Origin: a virus
Lineage: Duplodnaviria > Heunggongvirae > Uroviricota > Caudoviricetes
DNA: 11,298 nt
Virus record (IMG/VR): IMGVR_UViG_2740892431_000017
Reading direction: 5' to 3' (one strand)
How positions within the stretch are numbered: the first letter of the stretch is position 1; every line of letters begins with the position of its first letter. This document shows positions 1-11,298 of this stretch, piece by piece. The position numbers were made by a program, and so were the translations under genes. The notes under the pieces are model-generated. The model was given only the letters and a program-made list of their open reading frames with translations, did not search any database and was not told the DNA's origin.

Positions 1-67
1 GGAAATTGTTGTCGCCATTGTTCGATTAACGCGTATTTTTCAGCGACTCCTGTGCAAAATACGCTGT

Positions 68-1288
68 TGTAGATTCAATCTGTCAATGCAACACCCCTTT
101 CAATTATCTCTTTCGGTGTTTTGAACTTCAGTGTCTTTCTCGGTCTGTTGTTTAGCTGAGCAGCAACCAGATCTAGTTCATGTTGAGTATATTGGGCAAG
201 ACATGTCTTTTTAGGAAAGTACTGCCGAATTAGCCCATTTGTGTTCTCATTTGTTCCCCGCTGCCAAGGACTCTGAGGATCGCAGAAGTAAACTTTAACG
301 CCGGTGCTGACAGTAAATTCTAGATGTCTGGCCAGTTCCATTCCTCTGTCCCATGTCAGTGATTTTCTGAGTTCTGACGGTAAACTCAGGAATTTGTCGG
401 TAAGAGCCTGATTTACTGAGACAGAATCTTTGCCCCTGAGTCTAAGGATGATCGTATAACGTGATTTTCGGTCTACAAGTGTGGCTATATGAGAGTTTTT
501 TGTACCTGAGACTAAATCGCCCTCCCAATGCCCCAGAGAGCGTCTGTTATCGATATTTCGGGAACGTTCGTGAATTGGTGTTCCGTTCACTATGTTAATC
601 GTACCTCTTTCGCCTTTGCGGGTATGACGCCTGCCATGGCGAAGGCTATGCGACCGTCGCAGATGCTGTATATTCAGGTGGTGTAGCGCTTCACGGCTAC
701 GAAAGTACAGCGTTTTATAAATTGTCTCAGGTGATATTCGCAGCGTTTTTTGACGTGGTTTTGTTCGCCTTAACCATCCTGATATTTGCTCTGGAGACCA
801 TTGCATCTCCAGCTTTTCCAGAACAAGCTTTCGCAATGGTAAATTTTGATCCAGTAAGCACGGTTTTGGCCTTTTCGCCATTCTGTTGGCTCGGTTATTA
901 GCATCAACAGCTTTGTAATAGCGTCTGCCCCGATTACGCTGAACTTCACGTGAGATCGTCGAAGGACTGCGATTCAGCGTAGTAGCTATCGCACGAATGC
1001 TCATTTTGGCTGACAAACCAGCTCGTATCTCCTCGCGCTCAGACAGTGTCAGGTGAGCTACAGCCCGCTTACGCTCATGGGGTTTTATGCCGCCAGTATC
1101 CCTTAACATAGTGAAGATCGTTGCGGGTTTTGAACCCAGGATATTCGCTATTTCACTGAAGCCTGTTCCGTTCTTCCATAGTTCAAAAACAGAGGCTTTT
1201 TCCTCTGCTGTAAATGTTCGTCTCATTCAAAAAACCTCCGCAACCCCATGTTTTCACATAACTGTTGCGTTGACCAATTGAATCTACA
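68..1288 (-). mobile_element. IS30 insertion sequence, complete (1221 bp) with 26-bp imperfect terminal inverted repeats and 2-bp target duplication
   Basis: Termini 68-93 tgtagattcaatctgtcaatgcaaca and 1263-1288 (reverse complement tgtagattcaattggtcaacgcaaca) match in 23 of 26 positions. Flanking GT at 66-67 and 1289-1290 is consistent with a 2-bp target site duplication. Single 383-aa transposase ORF inside. Confidence 0.92.
75..1226 (-). CDS. insI: IS30 family transposase (383 aa)
   Basis: 383-aa [34 protein letters not shown]... with N-terminal helix-turn-helix region and C-terminal DDE-type core; ATG at 1226-1224. Length and position within a 1221-bp element match IS30. Confidence 0.93.
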
Positions 1289-2997
<1,709 letters not shown>

Positions 2998-3076
2998 GAT
3001 GAGTATCCTTTCAAGGGTTCTGTGTGGGTACAAACATTATCGAACCGGGAAATACCCGCAGTTGTACCCGCATCAG

Positions 3077-3116
3077 TAAGTTGATGTAGATTGAATCAGG
3101 TTGACTTAGGTTGAGT
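3077..3116. promoter_or_regulatory. Four tandem 10-bp-phased repeats (consensus nARGTTGAnn) between attP core and int start; candidate integrase arm-type binding sites or int promoter control
   Basis: Tandem 10-bp units: 3077-3086 taagttgatg, 3087-3096 tagattgaat, 3097-3106 caggttgact, 3107-3116 taggttgagt. One helical turn spacing; location in attP arm next to int 5-prime end. Confidence 0.35.
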
Positions 3117-3158
3117 GAAAAAGCGAGGAAAGCCTTGCGGATACTGGATTTTAGGCAC

Positions 3159-3182
3159 AAAAAAAGACGTCCGTTGACGTCT
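3159..3182 (-). terminator. Rho-independent terminator (minus strand) just downstream of the tRNA 3-prime-end mimic
   Basis: Stem AGACGTC (3165-3171), loop CGTT, stem GACGTCT (3176-3182), followed on the minus strand by a 7-nt U-tract (3159-3165). Confidence 0.5.
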
Positions 3183-3195
3183 ATTGATGTTCCGA

Positions 3196-3217
3196 TGGTG
3201 CGAAGGACGGACTCAAA
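3196..3217 (-). other. attP core candidate: tRNA-Leu 3-prime-end-like sequence (T-loop, acceptor arm, CCA) without the rest of a tRNA gene
   Basis: Minus strand reads TTTGAGTCCGTCCTTCGCACCA, resembling the T-loop/acceptor/CCA end of a tRNA (recalled leuX end GGTTCGAGTCCGGCCTTCGGCACCA). Sequence upstream on the minus strand is AT-rich and not tRNA-like, so this is a phage-borne core, not a tRNA gene. Confidence 0.5.
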
Positions 3218-3399
3218 CATCAAAATAAGTCAATGATAAAAAACAAATAATAAAACACAACAATGAAATATGCCCCCTTTTGTGCCCCCACTGTTTTTCT
3301 GACCAATCTATTTTCAGCCCATCAACAAATCGGAAAGTTAAATAATTTTTAATCAGTAAGTTTGGATCCGTAGTTCGGATCCAAACCAGTGCATCTTTT

Positions 3400-3720
3400 A
3401 TCCACATAAAAAATTTTTTTTCGGAAGAACTGTTCACACTGTTCACCTTTCTTTTTTCTCCTTTTATTTCATAGTGATAGGTGGTGAATAATGGGTGAAG
3501 GGTGAACATTCGATTCTTCACCTCCGGCATTCTGCCGGTGTGACTTGTGCAGGGGATTAATTTCCCGTGCTGAAATCACACCGGAAGAAAAAAGTTTTTT
3601 TTGATTTGATTGTTCACACTGTTCACCTTTCGTTTTTCTCTTTTAATTTCAGTGTGATAACGGGTGAATATACGGTGAAGGGTGAACAGTGGATTGTTCA
3701 CCTTCGGGGGATTCAGGGAT
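3400..3720. repeat. crr-like cis-replication region: two ~120-bp imperfect direct repeats, each carrying TGTTCACC / GGTGAACA iterons (alpha-protein binding octamers)
   Basis: Repeat unit 1 about 3411-3530 and unit 2 about 3591-3712, roughly 85 percent identical. Iterons include tgttcacc at 3440-3447 and 3620-3627, ggtgaaca at 3500-3507 and 3680-3687, tgttcacc at 3695-3702. Lies immediately downstream of alpha, as crr does in P4. Confidence 0.75.
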
Positions 3721-3745
3721 AAAAAAAGACCGGCAGATGCCGGTC
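3721..3745 (-). terminator. Rho-independent terminator of the leftward (alpha) operon
   Basis: Directly after the alpha stop (3762-3764): stem GACCGGC (3728-3734), loop AGAT, stem GCCGGTC (3739-3745), then 7 U on the minus strand (3721-3727). Confidence 0.7.
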
Positions 3746-3761
3746 AGATGAGTCATGATGG

Positions 3762-6095
3762 TCAGGTTGTTGCAGGGTCGTCACATTTTGGCAGCCAGTC
3801 GCCGTAGCTTTCCTCTTTCAGCGTCAGGTTGGTCTGTATCCCCTGTTTGGTATGGCGCTTCTCGTAATTCAGTCCGTATTCCTTCAGCATCACCGGCAGC
3901 CCCAGCCCGAACATTTTCAGACTGAGTACATTCCGGTAGCCGTTTGCCTCCATGTAGGCCAGATAGGCGTGATAGAGGTATTTACGGTAATTACGCGGGA
4001 TGATACTGGCGTTCCCCATATACATGCCGCTGGTCTGCGGCAGGGTTTCCAGATAGCCGATAAAATCAAACGTCGGGTCGGCATCCCGTTTGATGTTCAG
4101 TGCCTCGTCTGAGTTCTGCTGGGACTGAAGCAGTGACCGGGCGAGCATCGGGTCGCTGAACTTCTGCATCAGGTGACGCACGATGACCGCCAGCTCGCGG
4201 GTGATTTTGTCCTTAAGCTGCGGGTCGCGCTCCTGCGGGGCTATCTGTTCCGGGAAGTGAATAATCACCCGCCGGCGTGACACGCCGCCGCTGCGGTCGG
4301 TGAAGCGCATCGGGTTATTGTTCACGGCCAGAATCACCGCCGGGATGTGCGTGGAGTACGCATCCCGGTATTTCGGGTCAACGGACACTGCATCGCCGCC
4401 GGTGATGGCCTTGAGTCCGGCTCCGTCGCCGCTCCATTTTTCCTGGTCCGGCAGGCGTATCAGTGAGAAGCCAGTTAACGCGGCACGTTCACGCGGGGAT
4501 TCCAGCGTCTCGATGGTGGCCGACGTGGCGTTATCCTCACCGGCCAGCAGGGTGGCGATTTCGGCCATGATACTTTTGCCGCTGCCGCCGGGACCGGTCA
4601 CCTCCAGAAAGAGCTGCCAGTCGTAGCGGTTTGCCAGCACCATAAACAGTGCGGCCAGAATCACGTCGCGTTTTTCCGCACGGCCACCGGCGGCACGGTC
4701 AAGCCAGCGCCAGAACGCGGGGGCGTGGGTCTCCAGCGTTTCACCGTCCACCGGCGGGGTGAAATCCACATCGCACAGGGTGCGCATCCAGTGTGACGGA
4801 CTGTGCGGATGGAACGTGCCGTTCTGCGTGTCGAGCACGCCGTTACGAAAGCCAATCAGGCGGCGGGAGGGGGCTTCCTGCTGCGGAATAATCAGTTTCA
4901 GGGTGTCCACCACGGAGGCCACCTTCCCGGAGGAGAACGGCGCGCGCAGACGCTGAAACAGCCCGGCCACATCCCGGGCAAAGTCCTGTGGCGGCAGCAC
5001 CTTCCAGACACCATTTTCATAGCGGGACAGAAGCTGGCCGTTGGCATCGACCGCGAGCGCCTCGCCGTAATGCTCATAGATACGCATGGCCTTTTCGCTG
5101 GTACTCATGGCGGAAAACTCTGCTTCGCTCATGGTGTCGAACGGGCTTTCAGCCGGTGGCCGGATGGCATCGTAAATGGCCTTACGGGTGGCCTCCCCGC
5201 CGTACTGCGTGAAGGCATCATTCCAGTCACCGAAGACCGGCGGCAGGGCAACAACGCCCTCACACGCATCTGCGGCTGCGGCGGCTTTTTTCTGGCCGTC
5301 ACCGCTGAGGTCACGGTCTGCGGCAAGGACAATCTGACAGGCCGGATGCTTCTGCCGGGCAAGGCTGGCCAGAGAAAGGAGGTTCACGGAAGAAAGCGCC
5401 ACCATCACCGTTTCACCGGTCAGGTGATGCACGGTAAGTGCGGTCGCGTATCCCTCCGCTATCCACAGACGTTTTCCGGCCTGATTCTGTCCTTCAAGGG
5501 TGTGACAGGTGCCCCTGACCTGTCCGCCTTTCAGGGTGCGCTTACGGCCGTCAGCACTGATTAACTGAAGGTTAACCAGTTCGCCGCTGTCGTCATACAG
5601 TGGCACCACAAGGTCACCGGCGCGCCAGCTCACGCCACCGGCTCTGTGTGTGCCGGTCAGCATCCGGCATTCCCGGCCGGGAAAGCCCTTGCGGGTCAGG
5701 TAGGCGTTACCGGTTCCGGGACGGGTTTTTGCCATCAGGGTTTGTGCCAGTGCGGCGGCGTTCTTCCGGGCAGCGTCTGTTTCAGCAACGGCGGCGGCCG
5801 TCACTGCCGGGTCAGCCGGGGGCAGGCTGCCGGTCACGGCAGCCACCTTTGCGGCCGCGTCGGACGGAGAGACACCAAACACCTTTCCAACCAGTTTCAG
5901 GCCGTCACCGGCACCACACTGATTGCAGTACCAGGTGCCGCGCCCCTCCCTGTCATCAAAACGGAAGCGGTCACTCCCGCCACAGACCGGACAGGGCTGA
6001 TGACGGTTTTTCAGCACCTGAATCCCCAGCGCCGGGAGAATACGCGGCCAGTGGCCGAGCGCATGGCTGACGGTGGCGGTTACGTTCATTTTCAT
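3762..6095 (-). CDS. alpha: P4 alpha protein: bifunctional primase-helicase with C-terminal origin-binding domain (777 aa)
   Basis: 777-aa ORF with AAGGAG Shine-Dalgarno. N-terminal zinc-ribbon CPVCGGSDRFRF...YCNQCG and primase-type acidic motifs (LAADRDLSGDG), Walker A VTGPGGSGKS in the central helicase region. Length matches P4 alpha and cognate iterons are present at crr and ori. Confidence 0.93.
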   Translation of the reverse strand: MKMNVTATVSHALGHWPRILPALGIQVLKNRHQPCPVCGGSDRFRFDDREGRGTWYCNQCGAGDGLKLVGKVFGVSPSDAAAKVAAVTGSLPPADPAVTAAAVAETDAARKNAAALAQTLMAKTRPGTGNAYLTRKGFPGRECRMLTGTHRAGGVSWRAGDLVVPLYDDSGELVNLQLISADGRKRTLKGGQVRGTCHTLEGQNQAGKRLWIAEGYATALTVHHLTGETVMVALSSVNLLSLASLARQKHPACQIVLAADRDLSGDGQKKAAAAADACEGVVALPPVFGDWNDAFTQYGGEATRKAIYDAIRPPAESPFDTMSEAEFSAMSTSEKAMRIYEHYGEALAVDANGQLLSRYENGVWKVLPPQDFARDVAGLFQRLRAPFSSGKVASVVDTLKLIIPQQEAPSRRLIGFRNGVLDTQNGTFHPHSPSHWMRTLCDVDFTPPVDGETLETHAPAFWRWLDRAAGGRAEKRDVILAALFMVLANRYDWQLFLEVTGPGGSGKSIMAEIATLLAGEDNATSATIETLESPRERAALTGFSLIRLPDQEKWSGDGAGLKAITGGDAVSVDPKYRDAYSTHIPAVILAVNNNPMRFTDRSGGVSRRRVIIHFPEQIAPQERDPQLKDKITRELAVIVRHLMQKFSDPMLARSLLQSQQNSDEALNIKRDADPTFDFIGYLETLPQTSGMYMGNASIIPRNYRKYLYHAYLAYMEANGYRNVLSLKMFGLGLPVMLKEYGLNYEKRHTKQGIQTNLTLKEESYGDWLPKCDDPATT

Positions 6096-6109
6096 GGTGT
6101 TGTTCTCCT

Positions 6110-6430
6110 TCAGTGCAGTACCGGCGCTTTTATGTGACGGGCACAGAGTTCATCCATCACAACCAGCCCGAGAAAGGACAGCGACGGCGCGGCCTTCAGG
6201 GGGCCGGATTCCATTAAATCTTCCAGCAGGGCACAGGCTATCTGACGCCCTTTTTCCTCACCGTGCTGGCGCAGATAAAAGCCTTCCAGCTCAGCGGCGA
6301 TGGCCGCCTCCAGTGACTCAAGGGTGAGATGCGGGTAGCGGTGCTGACGTTCGCACACGGTCAGCCAGGCACAGGCGACAGCGCGACGGTAAAGGGCAGC
6401 ACGTAAGACGGGCGGTAAGGGTGTTTTCAT
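6110..6430 (-). CDS. cnr: Copy-number regulator Cnr-like protein (106 aa)
   Basis: 106-aa ORF directly upstream of alpha (stop 6110-6112, 14 nt before alpha ATG), with GGGAGGA Shine-Dalgarno before ATG 6430-6428. Assignment is by position and size. Confidence 0.7.
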
Positions 6431-6565
6431 TTGTTTTCCTCCCTGTGACAGATGACTGCATTCCGTGCCGGTTGCATTAACTGATAAGGCATATCTGCGT
6501 CTCCTGAAGACGTGCGTATCCCTGCGCGAATACGCACATTTAATTTTTCGGGTGTCGTTTTTTAA

Positions 6566-7021
6566 TTACAGATAATTGCGGTAACTGTTATCCGGGGTGA
6601 TTTCCGGGTCAGGCTCCGTGCGGGGAATTTCCCGCCATTCCCGCGCCACCGGTGCCGCCCGGCTGACCGGAACAGGGGCCTGCGGGTAAATATCCAGATA
6701 TTTCTCCCGCCATTTCTGTAATTCCGGGTCTCCGGCCATTTCTTTCAGTACCGCATGCCGGTTTACGGGGCTGCGTTTAAACAGGTCAGGACGGTCACAG
6801 GTAAATTCCCGCAGAAAACGCCCCAGCGGGATGTCTGTGGTGCGCCCGTCAGCGAGGATACGCACAAGGATACTGAATTTACGGCGGTACGGGTTCCAGA
6901 CAATGTCCGGGCAGCGGTACGGCATTTCCCACGGAATACCGTCTTCCAGAATGCCGACCACGGCCACATCGGGAAAACCGGCAGAACGGTAAATCTCACC
7001 GGGCTGGGGAAAATCAAACAT
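6566..7021 (-). CDS. P4 orf151-like protein (151 aa), function unknown
   Basis: 151-aa [22 protein letters not shown]... with GGGGAGA Shine-Dalgarno; its ATG (7021-7019) overlaps the epsilon stop. Size and position match orf151 of the P4 left operon. Confidence 0.75.
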   Translation of the reverse strand: MFDFPQPGEIYRSAGFPDVAVVGILEDGIPWEMPYRCPDIVWNPYRRKFSILVRILADGRTTDIPLGRFLREFTCDRPDLFKRSPVNRHAVLKEMAGDPELQKWREKYLDIYPQAPVPVSRAAPVAREWREIPRTEPDPEITPDNSYRNYL

Positions 7022-7301
7022 GCGTCTTGTCTCCCCGGTCTTTCTGCTGGGCGAGAAAATCGCGGCACAGGCCTTTGGCTTTCAGCTCATTCAGCACAAA
7101 ATCAATATCTTCATTCAGGTAGCTGAAAATATGCGGAATGTAGAGCTGATGCAGGCCGGAGAGTTCACGGTGAATCAAATCACCCCCAACAAACTGGGAT
7201 ACGGCGCTGGCGCGGTTGAGCTTATGGTAAGCCTCAATGCTGAGGTGTTCACGGGCGTCATGACGCGCTGAGACGGTCTGAGGGGCTTTTTTATTACGCA
7301 C
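7014..7301 (-). CDS. epsilon: Epsilon (helper P2 derepression / anti-repressor) protein, ~95 aa, probable GTG start
   Basis: The only open frame between kil and orf151. GTG at 7301-7299 is preceded by GGAGGTG with 6-nt spacing and overlaps the kil stop (GTGCGTAA); product [28 protein letters not shown]...KDRGDKTHV. The 147-aa track ORF extends upstream into kil in another frame and is likely not the true N-terminus. Confidence 0.6.
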
Positions 7302-7491
7302 GGGACACCTCCACCACCGGCAGACGGGCAGCAAGGGAGAGCACATAGTCACGGACAAGGGAACGGCGGGCACTGCGTTCATCACCGGCGACGGTGCGAA
7401 GCATGCAGATACGGGGATGACGGTCTGCGCGACGGACAGCCGCAAACACAAAGACAAATTCAGGGTGTGAAGGGGTAAGGGTTGTAGCCAT
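7294..7491 (-). CDS. kil: Kil-like small protein (65 aa), terminal part of the eta frame
   Basis: ATG 7491-7489 preceded by GGAGG at 9-nt spacing; product [65 protein letters not shown] (65 aa). Matches recalled P4 kil: 65 codons, first translated gene downstream of PLE, nested in eta. Confidence 0.6.
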
Positions 7492-7893
7492 GATGGCAGC
7501 CTCCGTTAGATAGCAGGTTACGCTATCGCCGGAGTTTCCACGCTCGATGGCGATAGCCCAGACGGGGGTGGAAATACCGGCTCTAACGGATACCGGCCAG
7601 CCCGGAGGCTGCCCCGCCTGAGCTACCATTGACTCTGCGGCATAATGAGCGGACGCGGGCAGGATGCACGGAGTTCCATCTGCTCGACTGACCACACACC
7701 ACACCATAATCTGGCGCTCTGTGGCGTTGATTGCGACACAAAAAAAGACGCATGGCGCGTCATATGTCGCCGTTAGATTGCTCGGGTTTCCACGCCCGGC
7801 TGCCGATTTTGCGACAGCGGAAAAACTATATCCGCAAATGCCGGAAAAAGGCAAGCCAGAAAAAGGGACTTTTTGCAGAACAGGCATCATCAT
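7294..7893 (-). CDS. eta: Eta-like nested ORF (197-199 aa from three consecutive ATG codons), overlapping PLE, cI and kil
   Basis: Continuous frame from ATG ATG ATG (7893-7885, overlapping the vis stop) to TAA 7294-7296. Matches the recalled P4 eta description (three candidate starts, 197-199 aa, begins upstream of PLE, ends as kil). Whether a stable protein is made cannot be judged from sequence. Confidence 0.45.
7550..7640 (-). ncRNA. cI: Candidate CI immunity RNA region (contains seqB); exact ends not determinable from sequence
   Basis: seqB complementarity element plus nearby GC-rich stem potential. P4 immunity is mediated by a short processed RNA carrying seqB; boundaries here are approximate. 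Confidence 0.35.
7740..7761 (-). terminator. Candidate intrinsic terminator or attenuator just downstream of seqA
   Basis: Stem GACGC (7747-7751), loop ATGGC, stem GCGTC (7757-7761), followed on the minus strand by 7 U (7746-7740). Short stem, so weak. Confidence 0.35.
7825..7854 (-). promoter_or_regulatory. Candidate sigma70 early promoter (PLE-like) for the kil-epsilon-alpha operon
   Basis: Minus strand TTGCCT (7854-7849), 18-bp spacer, TATAGT (7830-7825); lies between the vis stop and seqA. Confidence 0.4.
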
Positions 7894-8156
7894 GCGTCGT
7901 ACCCCCGTTTGCGTCCGGCAATGCGGCCGGCCATCCATGCGGTGACTTCAGAGTGCAGCCAGGCCACATTTTTACCGCCAAGACTCACCTGCGGCGGAAA
8001 TTCCCCCTTACGGATGAGTTCGTAGATGGTCGAGCGTGACAGGCCGCACAGGTGCATCACTTCCGGAAGACGTAAAAAACGCTCCTGTGTGATGTCCGGC
8101 AGCGGCATCAGTGGCGTCACAGGGGCGGGAGACGGGGAAGAAAAAACAGCTTGCAT
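7890..8156 (-). CDS. vis: Vis: AlpA/excisionase-family DNA-binding regulator of late promoters and recombination directionality factor (88 aa)
   Basis: 88-aa ORF with GAGGT Shine-Dalgarno. Helix-turn-helix [44 protein letters not shown] is characteristic of the AlpA/Xis family; first gene after the leftward late promoter; size matches P4 orf88/vis. Confidence 0.85.
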
Positions 8157-8258
8157 CGGGCTACCTCGTTAATGTCCATACAGCACCGGATAAGTCCGTC
8201 CGGCTTCGGGTAGCGCTTTATTTTGTGAATATTTTCGGCAGACGCAACAGGGGGGATT

Positions 8259-8276
8259 TGTTCCGGCAGCCTTACA
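8259..8276 (-). promoter_or_regulatory. Candidate Ogr/Delta-responsive late promoter element (PLL-like): TGT-N12-ACA dyad upstream of vis
   Basis: tgt(8259-8261), 12 nt, aca(8274-8276); centre about 110 bp upstream of the vis ATG. P2/P4 late promoters carry this dyad centred near -55. Confidence 0.4.
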
Positions 8277-8439
8277 ATGGCTGTGCATTTTTTGTACATC
8301 AGCGCCAGATAGCTTTAAAACGCTCTGGAAGGAGCTGGAAAAAATTATAGTGAAATACAAATTGTTTTTTCTTATTTATTTCAGTGAATTAATAAAAATA
8401 AAAAGTAATAAACAGCACAAAAAGCCCATCAACGGGTGA

Positions 8440-8550
8440 ACAGTGGTGAACAGACGGTGAACAGTCATTACTGCGATTGTTCACCCTTTAACTTACTGTA
8501 TTACTTATCTTTTTTCTTATTGTGAACAGAGATGAACAGTAAAATATAAA
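8440..8550. repeat. ori-like iteron cluster (GGTGAACAG direct repeats plus inverted TGTTCACC), about 4.8 kb from crr
   Basis: gggtgaacag 8444-8453, tggtgaacag 8454-8463, cggtgaacag 8465-8474, inverted tgttcacc 8488-8495, degenerate tgtgaacag 8530-8538 and gatgaacag 8540-8548. Same octamer as crr; the spacing matches the recalled ~4.5 kb ori-crr separation in P4. Confidence 0.7.
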
Positions 8551-8618
8551 AAAAACAAACAGTAAGCCGGTTTTTCCTGCGACCTTTTCCTGGCTTGCCG
8601 GTCTGAGGATGAGTCTCC

Positions 8619-8636
8619 TGTGTCAGGGCTGGCACA
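8619..8636 (+). promoter_or_regulatory. Candidate Delta/Ogr-activated late promoter element (Psid-like): TGT-N12-ACA dyad upstream of sid
   Basis: tgt(8619-8621)-gtcagggctggc-aca(8634-8636); centre about 80 bp upstream of the sid ATG, compatible with an activator site at -55 plus a short leader. Confidence 0.5.
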
Positions 8637-8708
8637 TCTGCAATGCGTCGTGTTGTTGTCCGGTGTACGTCACAATTTTCTTAACCTGAAGTGACGAGGA
8701 ACCGGAAA

Positions 8709-9443
8709 ATGTCTGACAACACCATCCCTGAATATCTGCAACCCGCGCTGGCACAACTGGAAAAGGCCAGAGCCGCCCATCTTGAGAACGCCCGCCTGAT
8801 GGATGAGACCGTCACGGCCATTGAACGGGCAGAGCAGGAAAAAAATGCGCTGGCGCAGGCCGACGGAAACGACGCTGACGACTGGCGCACGGCCTTTCGT
8901 GCAGCCGGTGGTGTCCTGAGCGATGAGCTGAAACAGCGCCACATTGAGCGCGTGGCACGCCGGGAGCTGGTACAGGAATATGACAATCTGGCCGTGGTGC
9001 TGAATTTTGAACGCGAACGCCTGAAAGGGGCGTGTGACAGCACGGCCACCGCCTACCGGAAGGCACATCATCACCTTCTGAGTCTGTATGCAGAGCATGA
9101 GCTGGAACACGCCCTGAATGAAACCTGTGAGGCGCTTGTCCGGGCAATGCATCTGAGCATCCTGGTACAGGAAAATCCGCTCGCCAACACCACCGGCCAT
9201 CAGGGCTACATCGCACCGGAAAAGGCTGTCATGCAGCAGGTGAAATCATCGCTGGAACAGAAAATAAAACAGATGCAAATCAGCCTCAGCGGTGAGCCGG
9301 TTCTCCGGCTGACCGGACTGTCAGCGGCAACACTCCCGCACATGGATTATGAGGTGGCAGGCACACCGGCACAGCGCAAGGTGTGGCAGGACAAAATAGA
9401 CCAGCAGGGAGCAGAGCTTAAGGCCAGAGGACTGCTGTCATGA
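8709..9443 (+). CDS. sid: Sid: external scaffold / capsid size-determination protein (244 aa)
   Basis: ATG at 8709 with GAGGAA Shine-Dalgarno (the track ORF starts 18 nt earlier). 244 aa, coiled-coil-rich; first gene of the sid-delta-psu operon; stop overlaps the delta start (ATGA at 9440-9443). Confidence 0.9.
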   Translation: MSDNTIPEYLQPALAQLEKARAAHLENARLMDETVTAIERAEQEKNALAQADGNDADDWRTAFRAAGGVLSDELKQRHIERVARRELVQEYDNLAVVLNFERERLKGACDSTATAYRKAHHHLLSLYAEHELEHALNETCEALVRAMHLSILVQENPLANTTGHQGYIAPEKAVMQQVKSSLEQKIKQMQISLSGEPVLRLTGLSAATLPHMDYEVAGTPAQRKVWQDKIDQQGAELKARGLLS

Positions 9444-9940
9444 TTTACTGCCCGTCGTGTGGACATGTTGCTCACACCCGTCGCGCACATTTCATGGACG
9501 ATGGCACCAAGATAATGATTGCACAGTGCCGGAATATTTATTGCTCTGCGACATTTGAAGCGAGTGAAAGCTTTTTCTCTGACTGTAAAGATTCAGGAAT
9601 GGAATACATTTCAGGCAAACAGAGATACCGCGATTCACTGACTTCTGCCTCCGGCAGTATGAAACGCCCGAAAAGAATGCTTGTTACCGGATATTGTTGT
9701 CGGAGATGTAAAGGCCTTGCACTGTCAAGAACATCGCGGCGTCTGTCTCAGGAAGTCACCGAACGTTTTTATGTGTGCACGGAGCCGGGCTGTGGTCTGG
9801 TGTTTAAAACGCTTCAGACCATCAACCGCTTCATTGTCCGCCCGGTCACGCCGGACGAACTGGCAGAAAGCCTGCATGAAAAACAGGAACTGCCGCCAGT
9901 ACGGTTAAAAACACAATCATATTCGCTGCGTCTGGAATGA
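9440..9940 (+). CDS. delta: Delta: late-gene transcriptional activator, tandem Ogr-like zinc-finger protein (166 aa)
   Basis: Two Ogr-type Cys4 motifs (CPSCGHVAH...CRNIYCSATFEA and CCRRCKGLAL...CTEPGCGLVFKT); 166 aa, as for P4 Delta. Confidence 0.9.
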   Translation: MIYCPSCGHVAHTRRAHFMDDGTKIMIAQCRNIYCSATFEASESFFSDCKDSGMEYISGKQRYRDSLTSASGSMKRPKRMLVTGYCCRRCKGLALSRTSRRLSQEVTERFYVCTEPGCGLVFKTLQTINRFIVRPVTPDELAESLHEKQELPPVRLKTQSYSLRLE

Positions 9941-10013
9941 GGGCTGCCGGTTAACCCCGGCCGTCGCCGCACACCGTATTTTTATTCTTCAGCATGATGA
10001 GAAAGAGATAACG

Positions 10014-10586
10014 ATGGAAAGCACAGCCTTACAGCAGGCCTTTGACACCTGTCAGAATAACAAAGCAGCATGGCTGCAACGCAAAAATGAGCTGGCTGCG
10101 GCCGAACAGGAATATCTGCGGCTTCTGTCAGGAGAAGGCAGAAACGTCAGTCGCCTGGACGAATTACGCAATATTATCGAAGTCAGAAAATGGCAGGTGA
10201 ATCAGGCTGCCGGTCGTTATATTCGTTCGCATGAAGCCGTTCAGCACATCAGCATCCGCGACCGGCTGAATGATTTTATGCAGCAGCACGGCACAGCACT
10301 GGCGGCCGCACTGGCACCGGAGCTGATGGGCTACAGTGAGCTGACGGCCATTGCCCGAAACTGTGCCATACAGCGTGCCACAGATGCCCTGCGTGAAGCC
10401 CTTCTGTCCTGGCTTGCGAAGGGGGAAAAAATTAATTATTCCGCACAGGATAGCGACATTTTAACGACCATCGGATTCAGGCCTGACGCGGCTTCGGTGG
10501 ATGACAGCCGTGAAAAATTCACCCCTGCGCAGAACATGATTTTTTCGCGTAAAAGTGCGCAACTGGTATCACATCAGTCTGTGTAA
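10014..10586 (+). CDS. psu: Psu: polarity suppression protein (Rho antagonist and capsid decoration), 190 aa
   Basis: 190-aa ORF after delta, followed by a hairpin and the cos site; size and operon position match P4 psu. Confidence 0.9.
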   Translation: MESTALQQAFDTCQNNKAAWLQRKNELAAAEQEYLRLLSGEGRNVSRLDELRNIIEVRKWQVNQAAGRYIRSHEAVQHISIRDRLNDFMQQHGTALAAALAPELMGYSELTAIARNCAIQRATDALREALLSWLAKGEKINYSAQDSDILTTIGFRPDAASVDDSREKFTPAQNMIFSRKSAQLVSHQSV

Positions 10587-10621
10587 AACTCCCCGAAAAT
10601 CCGCCCGTTTTTACTGAAAAA

Positions 10622-10660
10622 AGCCATGCATCGATAAGGTGCATGGCTTTGCATGCGTTT
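10622..10660 (+). terminator. Candidate terminator hairpin downstream of psu
   Basis: Stem AGCCATGCA (10622-10630), 9-nt loop, stem TGCATGGCT (10640-10648), followed by ttgcatgcgttttcc; the U-tract is weak. Confidence 0.4.
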
Positions 10661-10750
10661 TCCTGCCTCATTTTCTGCAAACCGCGCCATTCCCGGCGCG
10701 GCCTGAGCGTGTCAGTGCAACTGCATTAAAACCGCCCCGCAAAGCGGGCG

Positions 10751-10769
10751 GGCGAGGCGGGGAAAGCAC
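10751..10769. other. cos site: 19-nt P2/P4-type cohesive-end sequence
   Basis: GGCGAGGCGGGGAAAGCAC at 10751-10769 matches the recalled P2/P4 19-nt cohesive end. GC-rich imperfect palindromes on its left side (10682-10703, 10732-10751) are possible terminase-binding flank. Confidence 0.75.
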
Positions 10770-10879
10770 TGCGCGCAGACCTTGTTACATACTTAATAAA
10801 GTTCACAAATACTTAATACCATCACGCTCATGTGCAAAACTGTTTATTAAAATGAATACTGCCCTATACATCTAAAGTG

Positions 10880-10917
10880 TCGTTACCATAATAAAAGAAG
10901 ATTATAAAAAGCCGCCA
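10880..10917 (-). terminator. Rho-independent terminator for the minus-strand cargo gene
   Basis: Stem AAGCCGC (10898-10904), loop CATAAT, stem GCGGCTT (10911-10917); the minus strand continues with a U-rich tail (10897-10880), 35 nt after the cargo gene stop at 10952. Confidence 0.5.
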
Positions 10918-10951
10918 TAATGCGGCTTAAATCATACTCATTCCCAACAAG

Positions 10952-11298
10952 TTATTTGACATTCGATGCAGAAACCTTATTAGGCCTAGCATCAATCAAG
11001 ACTAAATCCTTACCTTCTTTAATCCCAAGTTCTTTGAAAGTCTTAAACAATCCAGACAATTCTCGATCAGTAAAATACAAAATAACCTTTATTGATTTTT
11101 TTGTTTCATTTGCCGCCTCATACACTTTAACCTGATTTGCCAGATTCTGTTTAAGCTTGGAGTTACTAGCCAGTTTGAATTCAACCAATGTTTTATCTTT
11201 CGAACCTCTCGATATTTTGTAGTCAACGGGACCACGACCATTATTTACTTCACTATTGACATCAGAAATACTAGGGAAGGTGCGAACAAGTTCCTGAT
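10952..11298 (-). CDS. Partial CDS (C-terminal ~115 aa; 5-prime end beyond window): low-GC accessory gene with PD-(D/E)xK-like nuclease motif, in the psu-cos-int accessory position
   Basis: Frame is open from the window edge to the stop at 10952-10954: QELVRTFPSISDVNSEVNNGRGPVDYKISRGSKDKTLVEFKLASNSKLKQNLANQVKVYEAANETKKSIKVILYFTDRELSGLFKTFKELGIKEGKDLVLIDARPNKVSASNVK. GPVD...LVEFK resembles a D-x(n)-E-x-K nuclease core. Roughly 35 percent GC against roughly 55 percent for the P4 core genes. The track ORF 10952-11188 starts at an internal TTG. Confidence 0.6.
   Translation of the reverse strand, partial: QELVRTFPSISDVNSEVNNGRGPVDYKISRGSKDKTLVEFKLASNSKLKQNLANQVKVYEAANETKKSIKVILYFTDRELSGLFKTFKELGIKEGKDLVLIDARPNKVSASNVK

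Follow-up and report, generated by a model that had tools for sequence, protein, structure and literature searches.

A natural inverted repeat conserved in the int-distal arm of P4-type attachment sites is probably a protein-binding element

The perfect inverted repeat that encloses two GGATCC motifs beside the attachment core of a P4-like element is a natural, conserved sequence. It is probably a double-stranded protein-binding site that forms the outer element of the P4-type attachment site on its int-distal arm. The analysis covered a window of 11,298 nucleotides, which is the whole stretch of viral DNA under study, together with wild-type P4 and a broad set of natural relatives. With the repeat included, the P4 attachment site appears ~95 bp longer than annotated, the added element being a conserved dyad-symmetric site. 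The P4 site is a long-used model and the prototype for the P4-family integrases carrying many genomic islands. A search of the full-text literature found no accessible description of the palindrome, and an early mention in the classical P4 att papers is possible.

The letters of an inverted repeat reported in an earlier note at 3361–3385 were found in the window, and the true extent of the repeat proved to be greater. The left arm, GTTTGGATCCG, and the right arm, CGGATCCAAAC, are each 11 nt long, 100% complementary and separated by the spacer TAGTT (Table 1). The two GGATCC motifs stand 7 bp apart, as had been described, and are the only two in the window, both inside the palindrome; the count itself is unremarkable (2 observed versus 2.4 expected). 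When the window was shuffled 300 times with dinucleotides preserved, a perfect 11-bp inverted repeat with a spacer of 3–8 nt arose in only 6 shuffles. Its conservation in relatives shows that the palindrome is no chance product. Separately, an exact 11-nt direct repeat, ATCAGTAAGTT, was observed at 3072–3082, in the int-proximal arm of an older island, and at 3352–3362, directly beside the palindrome (~0.08 expected by chance in the 800-bp region).

Table 1 Features of the attachment region in the window.
Feature	Position	Strand	Remarks
attR core GAGTCCGTCCTTCGCACCA	3196..3214	-	Copy of the leuX 3' end; P4 homology starts here
IHF-like match TATCATTGACTTA	3226..3238	-	1 mismatch; between arm pair and core
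Int arm-type repeat pair (GGGGGCACAAAAGGGGGCA)	3268..3291	-	Corresponds to P4 4151-4174
Weak IHF-like match CATCAACAAATCG	3320..3332	+	In the linker; 2 mismatches to WATCAANNNNTTR; putative in this window
Inverted repeat	3360..3386	.	Arms 3360-3370 and 3376-3386, spacer 3371-3375 (5 bp)
GGATCC (BamHI/Dam GATC), left half-site	3364..3369	.	
GGATCC (BamHI/Dam GATC), right half-site	3377..3382	.	
crr	3408..3707	+	Two 120-bp repeats with alpha-binding TGTTCAC repeats; neighbour, not part of the element

The window contains a natural P4-like prophage integrated at leuX beside an older, decayed island. Positions 3195–10750 correspond to P4 (X51522) 4077–11624 at 97.5% identity. This homology begins exactly at the attP core, and in E. 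coli genomes without the element the left flank directly adjoins tRNA-Leu (leuX), which together identify the element as an integrated natural prophage. An integrase pseudogene and IS30 and IS3/IS600 fragments lie to the left of 3195, and a search for tRNA genes found none in the window. The palindrome had been placed in an attP arm; it does lie in an attachment-site arm, the int-distal one, but since the element is integrated, this copy belongs to an attR junction. It lies outside the arm-type repeats annotated for P4 attP. The attR core of the window is one G shorter than the tRNA and P4 core and carries one G>T change.

Several further observations concern the two ends of the window. The left flank (1–3194) is a decayed leuX-associated island that contains a tyrosine integrase pseudogene with an internal stop (~2083–3223), an intact IS30 transposase (75–1226) and IS3/IS600/IS911 fragments. 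With the P4-like element inserted between leuX and the older island, the two stand in tandem. Over 10750–11298, homology to laboratory P4 stops at the cos end of the P4 record, and these last 550 bp are unlike the gop/beta region of P4; natural P4-like satellites carry variable cargo there, so a difference was to be expected.

Conservation of the palindrome was assessed in two sets of relatives. The first comprised 80 loci drawn from 185,579 species genomes and picked by their alpha primase; palindrome variants were present in 12 of them. The second was blind to the palindrome and combined all IMG/VR stretches matching the Int arm-type pair and the leuX core with loci from genomes, yielding 48 distinct arms. 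The inverted repeat, in the form CCGGTTWGGWTCC-GNNNNNC-GGWWCCWAACCGG, was retained in ~43 of these 48 P4-type arms, which come from many enterobacterial genera. The 4 or 5 arms without it (L058, L091, L092 and L114, with L111 degenerate) indicate that the repeat is dispensable in some lineages.

Across 26 variants the common architecture is 13-7-13, a symmetry longer than that in the window, with the alignment consensus C[C/T]GGTT[A/T/C]GG[A/T]TCC - GNNNNNC - GGA[T/A]CC[T/A]AACCG[A/G]. The five central bases vary freely. The core of the half-site is most often GGATCC, with GGAACC, GGTTCC and GGAGCC also seen; GGATCC/GATC occurs in both halves of 10 of the 26 variants, in one half of 12 and in neither half of 4. 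In an alignment of 24 lineages, information content was high at both half-sites, at the arm pair and at the core, whereas the spacer and the ~68-bp linker, the latter with indels of many lengths, scored low.

These comparisons refuted the proposal that the palindrome might be a scar left by a BamHI linker or by cloning in an engineered derivative of P4. Two BamHI sites within a short perfect palindrome, and nothing else, had spoken for it. Wild-type P4, with which the earlier note had suggested a comparison, carries identical 11-bp arms at X51522 4243–4269 and differs only by one spacer base (TAGCT for TAGTT). The 186-bp segment that runs from the core to the palindrome was found in 258 of 5426 complete E. 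coli genomes, in one copy each and always on the chromosome, and the window itself is a chromosomal prophage flanked by the remnant of a leuX island. The early GenBank entries X05947 and X05623 terminate at window positions 3369 and 3377, which are the two BamHI sites; natural sites therefore served as subcloning boundaries, and the entries merely end there. The question of engineering is thereby settled, and the sequence is natural.

The palindrome tracks the attachment-site type and not alpha or crr. Among the alpha-selected loci, the repeat was present in 10 of the 11 in which the scan found the P4-type arm pair and the leuX core. It was also present in L055, where a degraded arm and core copy had been missed by the scan, and in the deletion derivative L041. 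Alpha-bearing loci with other att types in the 80-locus set yielded no such repeat. The centre of the palindrome is ~85 bp from the Int arm-type pair (83–86 bp in most lineages) and ~160 bp from the core, and the distance from arm pair to core is constant at 57 bp. The palindrome thus shows two of the properties expected of an accessory element of a tyrosine-integrase attachment site, a fixed position relative to the arm-type sites and core and inheritance with the int/att type. Outlying centre-to-arm distances of 73, 74, 95, 95, 97 and 106 bp differ from 85 by about whole helical turns, and 81 and 89 were also recorded. This gives only a hint of helical phasing, and the argument is weak because 81 and 89, two of the eight outliers, are out of phase and several outliers are mutually related.

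The proximity of the replication region raises the alternative that the palindrome is a boundary or accessory site of crr, bound for example by SeqA at its two GATC sites or by a factor that acts together with DnaA. The crr repeats lie 38–60 bp upstream of the palindrome in 17 of the 24 lineages, measured to the last alpha-binding repeat, a perfect DnaA box is 12 bp away in P4 and in the window, and the sole GATC sites in the P4 backbone, spaced by 13 bp, are those of the palindrome. We nevertheless consider this alternative unlikely. Most loci that bear alpha and crr with other att types have no palindrome, whereas in 7 of the 24 lineages the palindrome stands with no crr repeats inside 400 bp. 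Only the minority of variants counted above carry GATC in both halves, and the DnaA box is restricted to the P4 lineage. This box, TTATCCACA at 3398–3406 between the palindrome and crr, has no second copy in the window, where 0.06 would be expected; laboratory P4 has it and more distant relatives lack it. P4 replication is not known to need DnaA.

A possible counterpart of the palindrome in P4-like elements with another att type was rejected. The motif CATTGGTATAC-N6-GTATACCAATG is found ~72 bp from the core TTCAGACTCCGCCAGC in a second att family (L004, L007, L009, L021, L023, L028, L031, L039, L043, L046, L053, L057, L062, L069 and L119) and is a direct repeat (TTGGTAYAC / TTAGGTAYAC). It seems palindromic because GTATAC is self-complementary, and the GTACAC variants repeat directly. 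It is probably the arm-type pair of the second family and not the equivalent of the palindrome. Loci L013 and L032 have related arm repeats and a different core.

The palindrome could also be a functionless relic, for example an inverted duplication of tRNA- or core-like sequence that is carried along with the att module. The likeness of the half-site to the leuX T arm and the left end of the core, described below, would suit such an origin, as would the P4-type arms that have no palindrome. Against this, both half-sites are preserved from genus to genus, in contrast to the spacer and the neighbouring 68-bp linker, in which divergence is almost complete and indels occur, the position relative to the arm pair is kept, and the GATC sites of the palindrome persist in backbones otherwise purged of GATC. 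A relic is accordingly judged improbable.

A further alternative is that the repeat acts in single-stranded form, as a hairpin or cruciform, either as an intrinsic terminator insulating the att/int region or as a structured RNA. The folded stem is stable at -18.9 and -21.3 kcal/mol, with z = -5.4 and -5.2 on the two strands relative to shuffled sequences. However, terminator and promoter scans of 3000–3800 returned nothing at 3360–3386, and a T-run after the stem is absent on both strands in the window and in relatives. An Rfam scan gave only sub-threshold chance matches elsewhere. Nor is pairing kept beyond the conservation of the half-sites themselves. When the full stem is treated as a structure, 85.7% of cells are paired versus 83.4% with shuffled partners; 13 of the 26 sequences have an A.A mismatch at the central pair 10-24, and pair 7-27 is A-U in 13, U-A in 7 and broken in 6. 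A covariation count over the 26 sequences did not support base pairing by compensatory change. The pattern indicates two independently conserved half-sites with W positions and not selection for pairing, and the hairpin alternative is regarded as very unlikely.

Coding sequence was likewise rejected as an explanation. PGAP annotates a 74-aa hypothetical protein (WP_032145180.1) on the minus strand at 3213–3530, over the att arm, the palindrome and the edge of crr; the same PGAP stretch occurs in L125 at 3617–3841, and some records label it "integrase". For this call and for the 51-aa URF of X05947, the frame on that strand is open in 4 of 24 lineages, and the linker carries indels of many lengths. 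The 74-aa protein is probably a spurious gene call because the frame is not conserved in relatives.

The earlier idea of a natural protein-binding site in the att arm fits this evidence in outline, but neither of the two kinds of site that had been named as candidates fits. The palindrome is unrelated to the Int arm-type repeat GGGGGCA and departs from the IHF consensus WATCAANNNNTTR, to which similar sequences are found only beside it, in the linker. The match in the linker of the window is weak, and relatives have a better one at the equivalent place. With a threshold of at most one mismatch to the consensus, an IHF-like match lies between palindrome and arm pair in 14 of 24 lineages (4.3 ± 1.8 in shuffles), and 9 of these 14 share one position, at 33 bp from the arm pair. 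The interval from arm pair to core holds such a match in 10 of 24 lineages (4.6 ± 1.8 in shuffles). This distribution fits a folded nucleoprotein arm that may form at the att site.

In the mechanism that we propose for the conserved protein-binding repeat, each half-site would bind one subunit of a dimer across a sequence-free centre of 5–7 bp. Bending of the AT-rich ~68-bp linker, in which IHF-like sites are frequent, would place the bound protein next to the Int arm-type pair (~85 bp away) and the core (~160 bp away). The palindrome would in this way help to assemble or regulate the integration/excision complex through which the element enters or leaves the host chromosome. The two BamHI sites would be a by-product of the preferred half-site GGATCC.

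The closest parallel is with the accessory sites of lambda attP (IHF H1/H2/H', Xis X1/X2 and Fis F), which lie in the arms of a heterobivalent tyrosine-integrase site. As in lambda, the P4 palindrome is a short conserved element that keeps its distance from the core and the Int arm-type sites and travels with the int/att module, and AT-rich, IHF-like, bendable DNA separates it from the arm sites and core. Unlike the lambda sites, it is a symmetric 13-7-13 sequence and not of the IHF, Xis or Fis type, and at ~160 bp from the core it stands farther out than any of them.

P4 attP in X51522 contains the same arm and the same element. The annotated site consists of a 20-bp core at 4078–4097 and six 12-bp arm repeats; the core and arm repeats were reportedly described by Pierson and Kahn in 1987. 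The palindrome, 69 bp beyond the outermost annotated arm repeat (4174), is outside the annotated attP. The Vis boxes, which Cali et al. reportedly located in 2004, are said to be on the opposite, int-proximal side of the core. Knowledge of the ligand would refine the model of integration and excision for P4-like satellites and leuX islands, and would help to set minimal attP fragments for integration vectors.

Among possible ligands, we tentatively place the core-binding/catalytic part of Int first, since the half-site is similar to both the leuX T arm and the core's left end. In tRNA-Leu(CAA), a matrix built from 52 half-sites scored highest on the T arm, CCGGTTCGAGTCC, with 10.6 bits (p = 3.8e-5 per position) against -2.4 bits for the runner-up; this likeness was noticed post hoc, and T arms from other tRNAs whose stem is CCGG would fit the half-site about equally well. 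Among the variants, the L024 half-site CCGGTTCGAATCC is nearly identical to the T arm. In lineages with the spacer GGGTTTC, the left half and spacer agree with the core sequence GAGTCCGGCCTTCG at 10 of 14 positions in our reading of the alignment.

The likely position of strand exchange also bears on this candidate. In the junctions compared, among L008–L126, the attR cores are almost always CCTTCGCACCA, one G fewer than the tRNA, attL and attB, whereas attL and empty attB carry CCTTCGGCACCA. Laboratory P4 and three loci have GG, and the window copy, GAGTCCGTCC, has the additional G>T change. The two core forms imply that this G is missing from the natural attP and that the strands are exchanged on its right, near CACCA, at the CACCA end of the core. 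The T-arm-like segment is 8–14 bp from this putative cleavage point, and the sequences directly flanking that point have no resemblance to the half-site. The case for Int is weakened because the T-arm-like segment is not adjacent to the cleavage site so placed.

One natural deletion, a further point in favour of Int, joins the palindrome to the core. In L041 (Klebsiella sp. WOUb02, 6696–6725), the palindrome centre is fused to the core, with GGGTTTCG directly followed by CACCA and the junction falling within a shared TTCG. The fusion connects the left half and spacer, GTTAGGATCCGGGTTTCG, to the right end of the attR core, CACCAatcaag. The deletion takes out the arm pair together with the right half-site and the core's left part, and should lock the prophage in. 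As a separate observation, an 8-bp unit, CTTCGCAC, is repeated in tandem 2 to 4 times at the attR core of the P4-lineage prophages L102, L106 and L110, and could reflect slippage or aberrant recombination at the crossover region.

The 13-7-13 architecture of the 26 variants has the layout of tyrosine-recombinase core-type sites, with inverted half-sites around a centre of 6–8 bp. As in loxP (13-8-13), FRT (13-8-13) and dif (11-6-11), half-sites of 11–13 bp are inverted around a variable centre of 5–7 bp, and the P4 half-site resembles sequence of the target tRNA and core. Unlike in loxP, FRT and dif, the sole hint of exchange at the P4 palindrome is the L041 deletion junction, and the P4 crossover is apparently at the CACCA end of the core, where the adjacent sequences are unlike the half-site.

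The GATC sites of the palindrome stand out against a depleted background. The window contains 15 GATC sites versus 39.5 expected, and the P4-homologous 7556 bp (3195–10750) contains only 2, at 3365 and 3378 and both in the palindrome, versus 24.6 expected; the same region of laboratory P4 has 3. In 49 related loci (among L008–L127), the 7 kb upstream of the palindrome contain 247 GATC sites versus 946 expected, and the lineages most depleted of GATC keep two in the palindrome. No comparable depletion was found in the left flank of the window or in the gop-beta-cII-int part of laboratory P4. Either GGATCC is the preferred half-site and has been shielded from a general purge, or Dam methylation matters at the palindrome.

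Since GATC is missing from the palindrome of some relatives, a conserved role for Dam or SeqA was set aside. Dam-sensitive protein sites are found in other mobile elements, at the inner ends of IS10/Tn10 and IS50/Tn5. As at these ends, GATC lies within the putative binding region of a recombination protein of a mobile element; unlike at these ends, the GATC of the P4 palindrome is not conserved in all relatives.

A more speculative combination, to which we assign a low probability, is that the palindrome is a symmetric mimic of the tRNA target, bound by Int or a partner of Int in a Dam-methylation-sensitive manner, and that the L041 deletion is a footprint of Int. If so, integration and excision would be set by the state of the DNA: unmethylated when newly injected or rapidly replicated, hemimethylated when just replicated, and fully methylated in the resting prophage. 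The GATC pattern offers a testable link of Dam methylation to satellite recombination.

Searches for the motif elsewhere returned few matches. No second paired site came to light when the half-site matrix was run over P4, the window and five complete relatives, so nothing indicates that Vis or another P4 promoter regulator uses the same motif. A blastn search with the consensus palindrome against the 5426 E. coli genomes added just 11 genomes, with single copies, so a host regulon is not indicated. Single half-site-like sequences were observed at window 3829–3841 in the 3' coding end of alpha (TTGGTCTGTATCC) and at P4 3832–3844 in the 5' coding end of int (GTGGTTTGTATCT). Both recur in relatives as weak single matches, and their conservation may reflect coding constraint.
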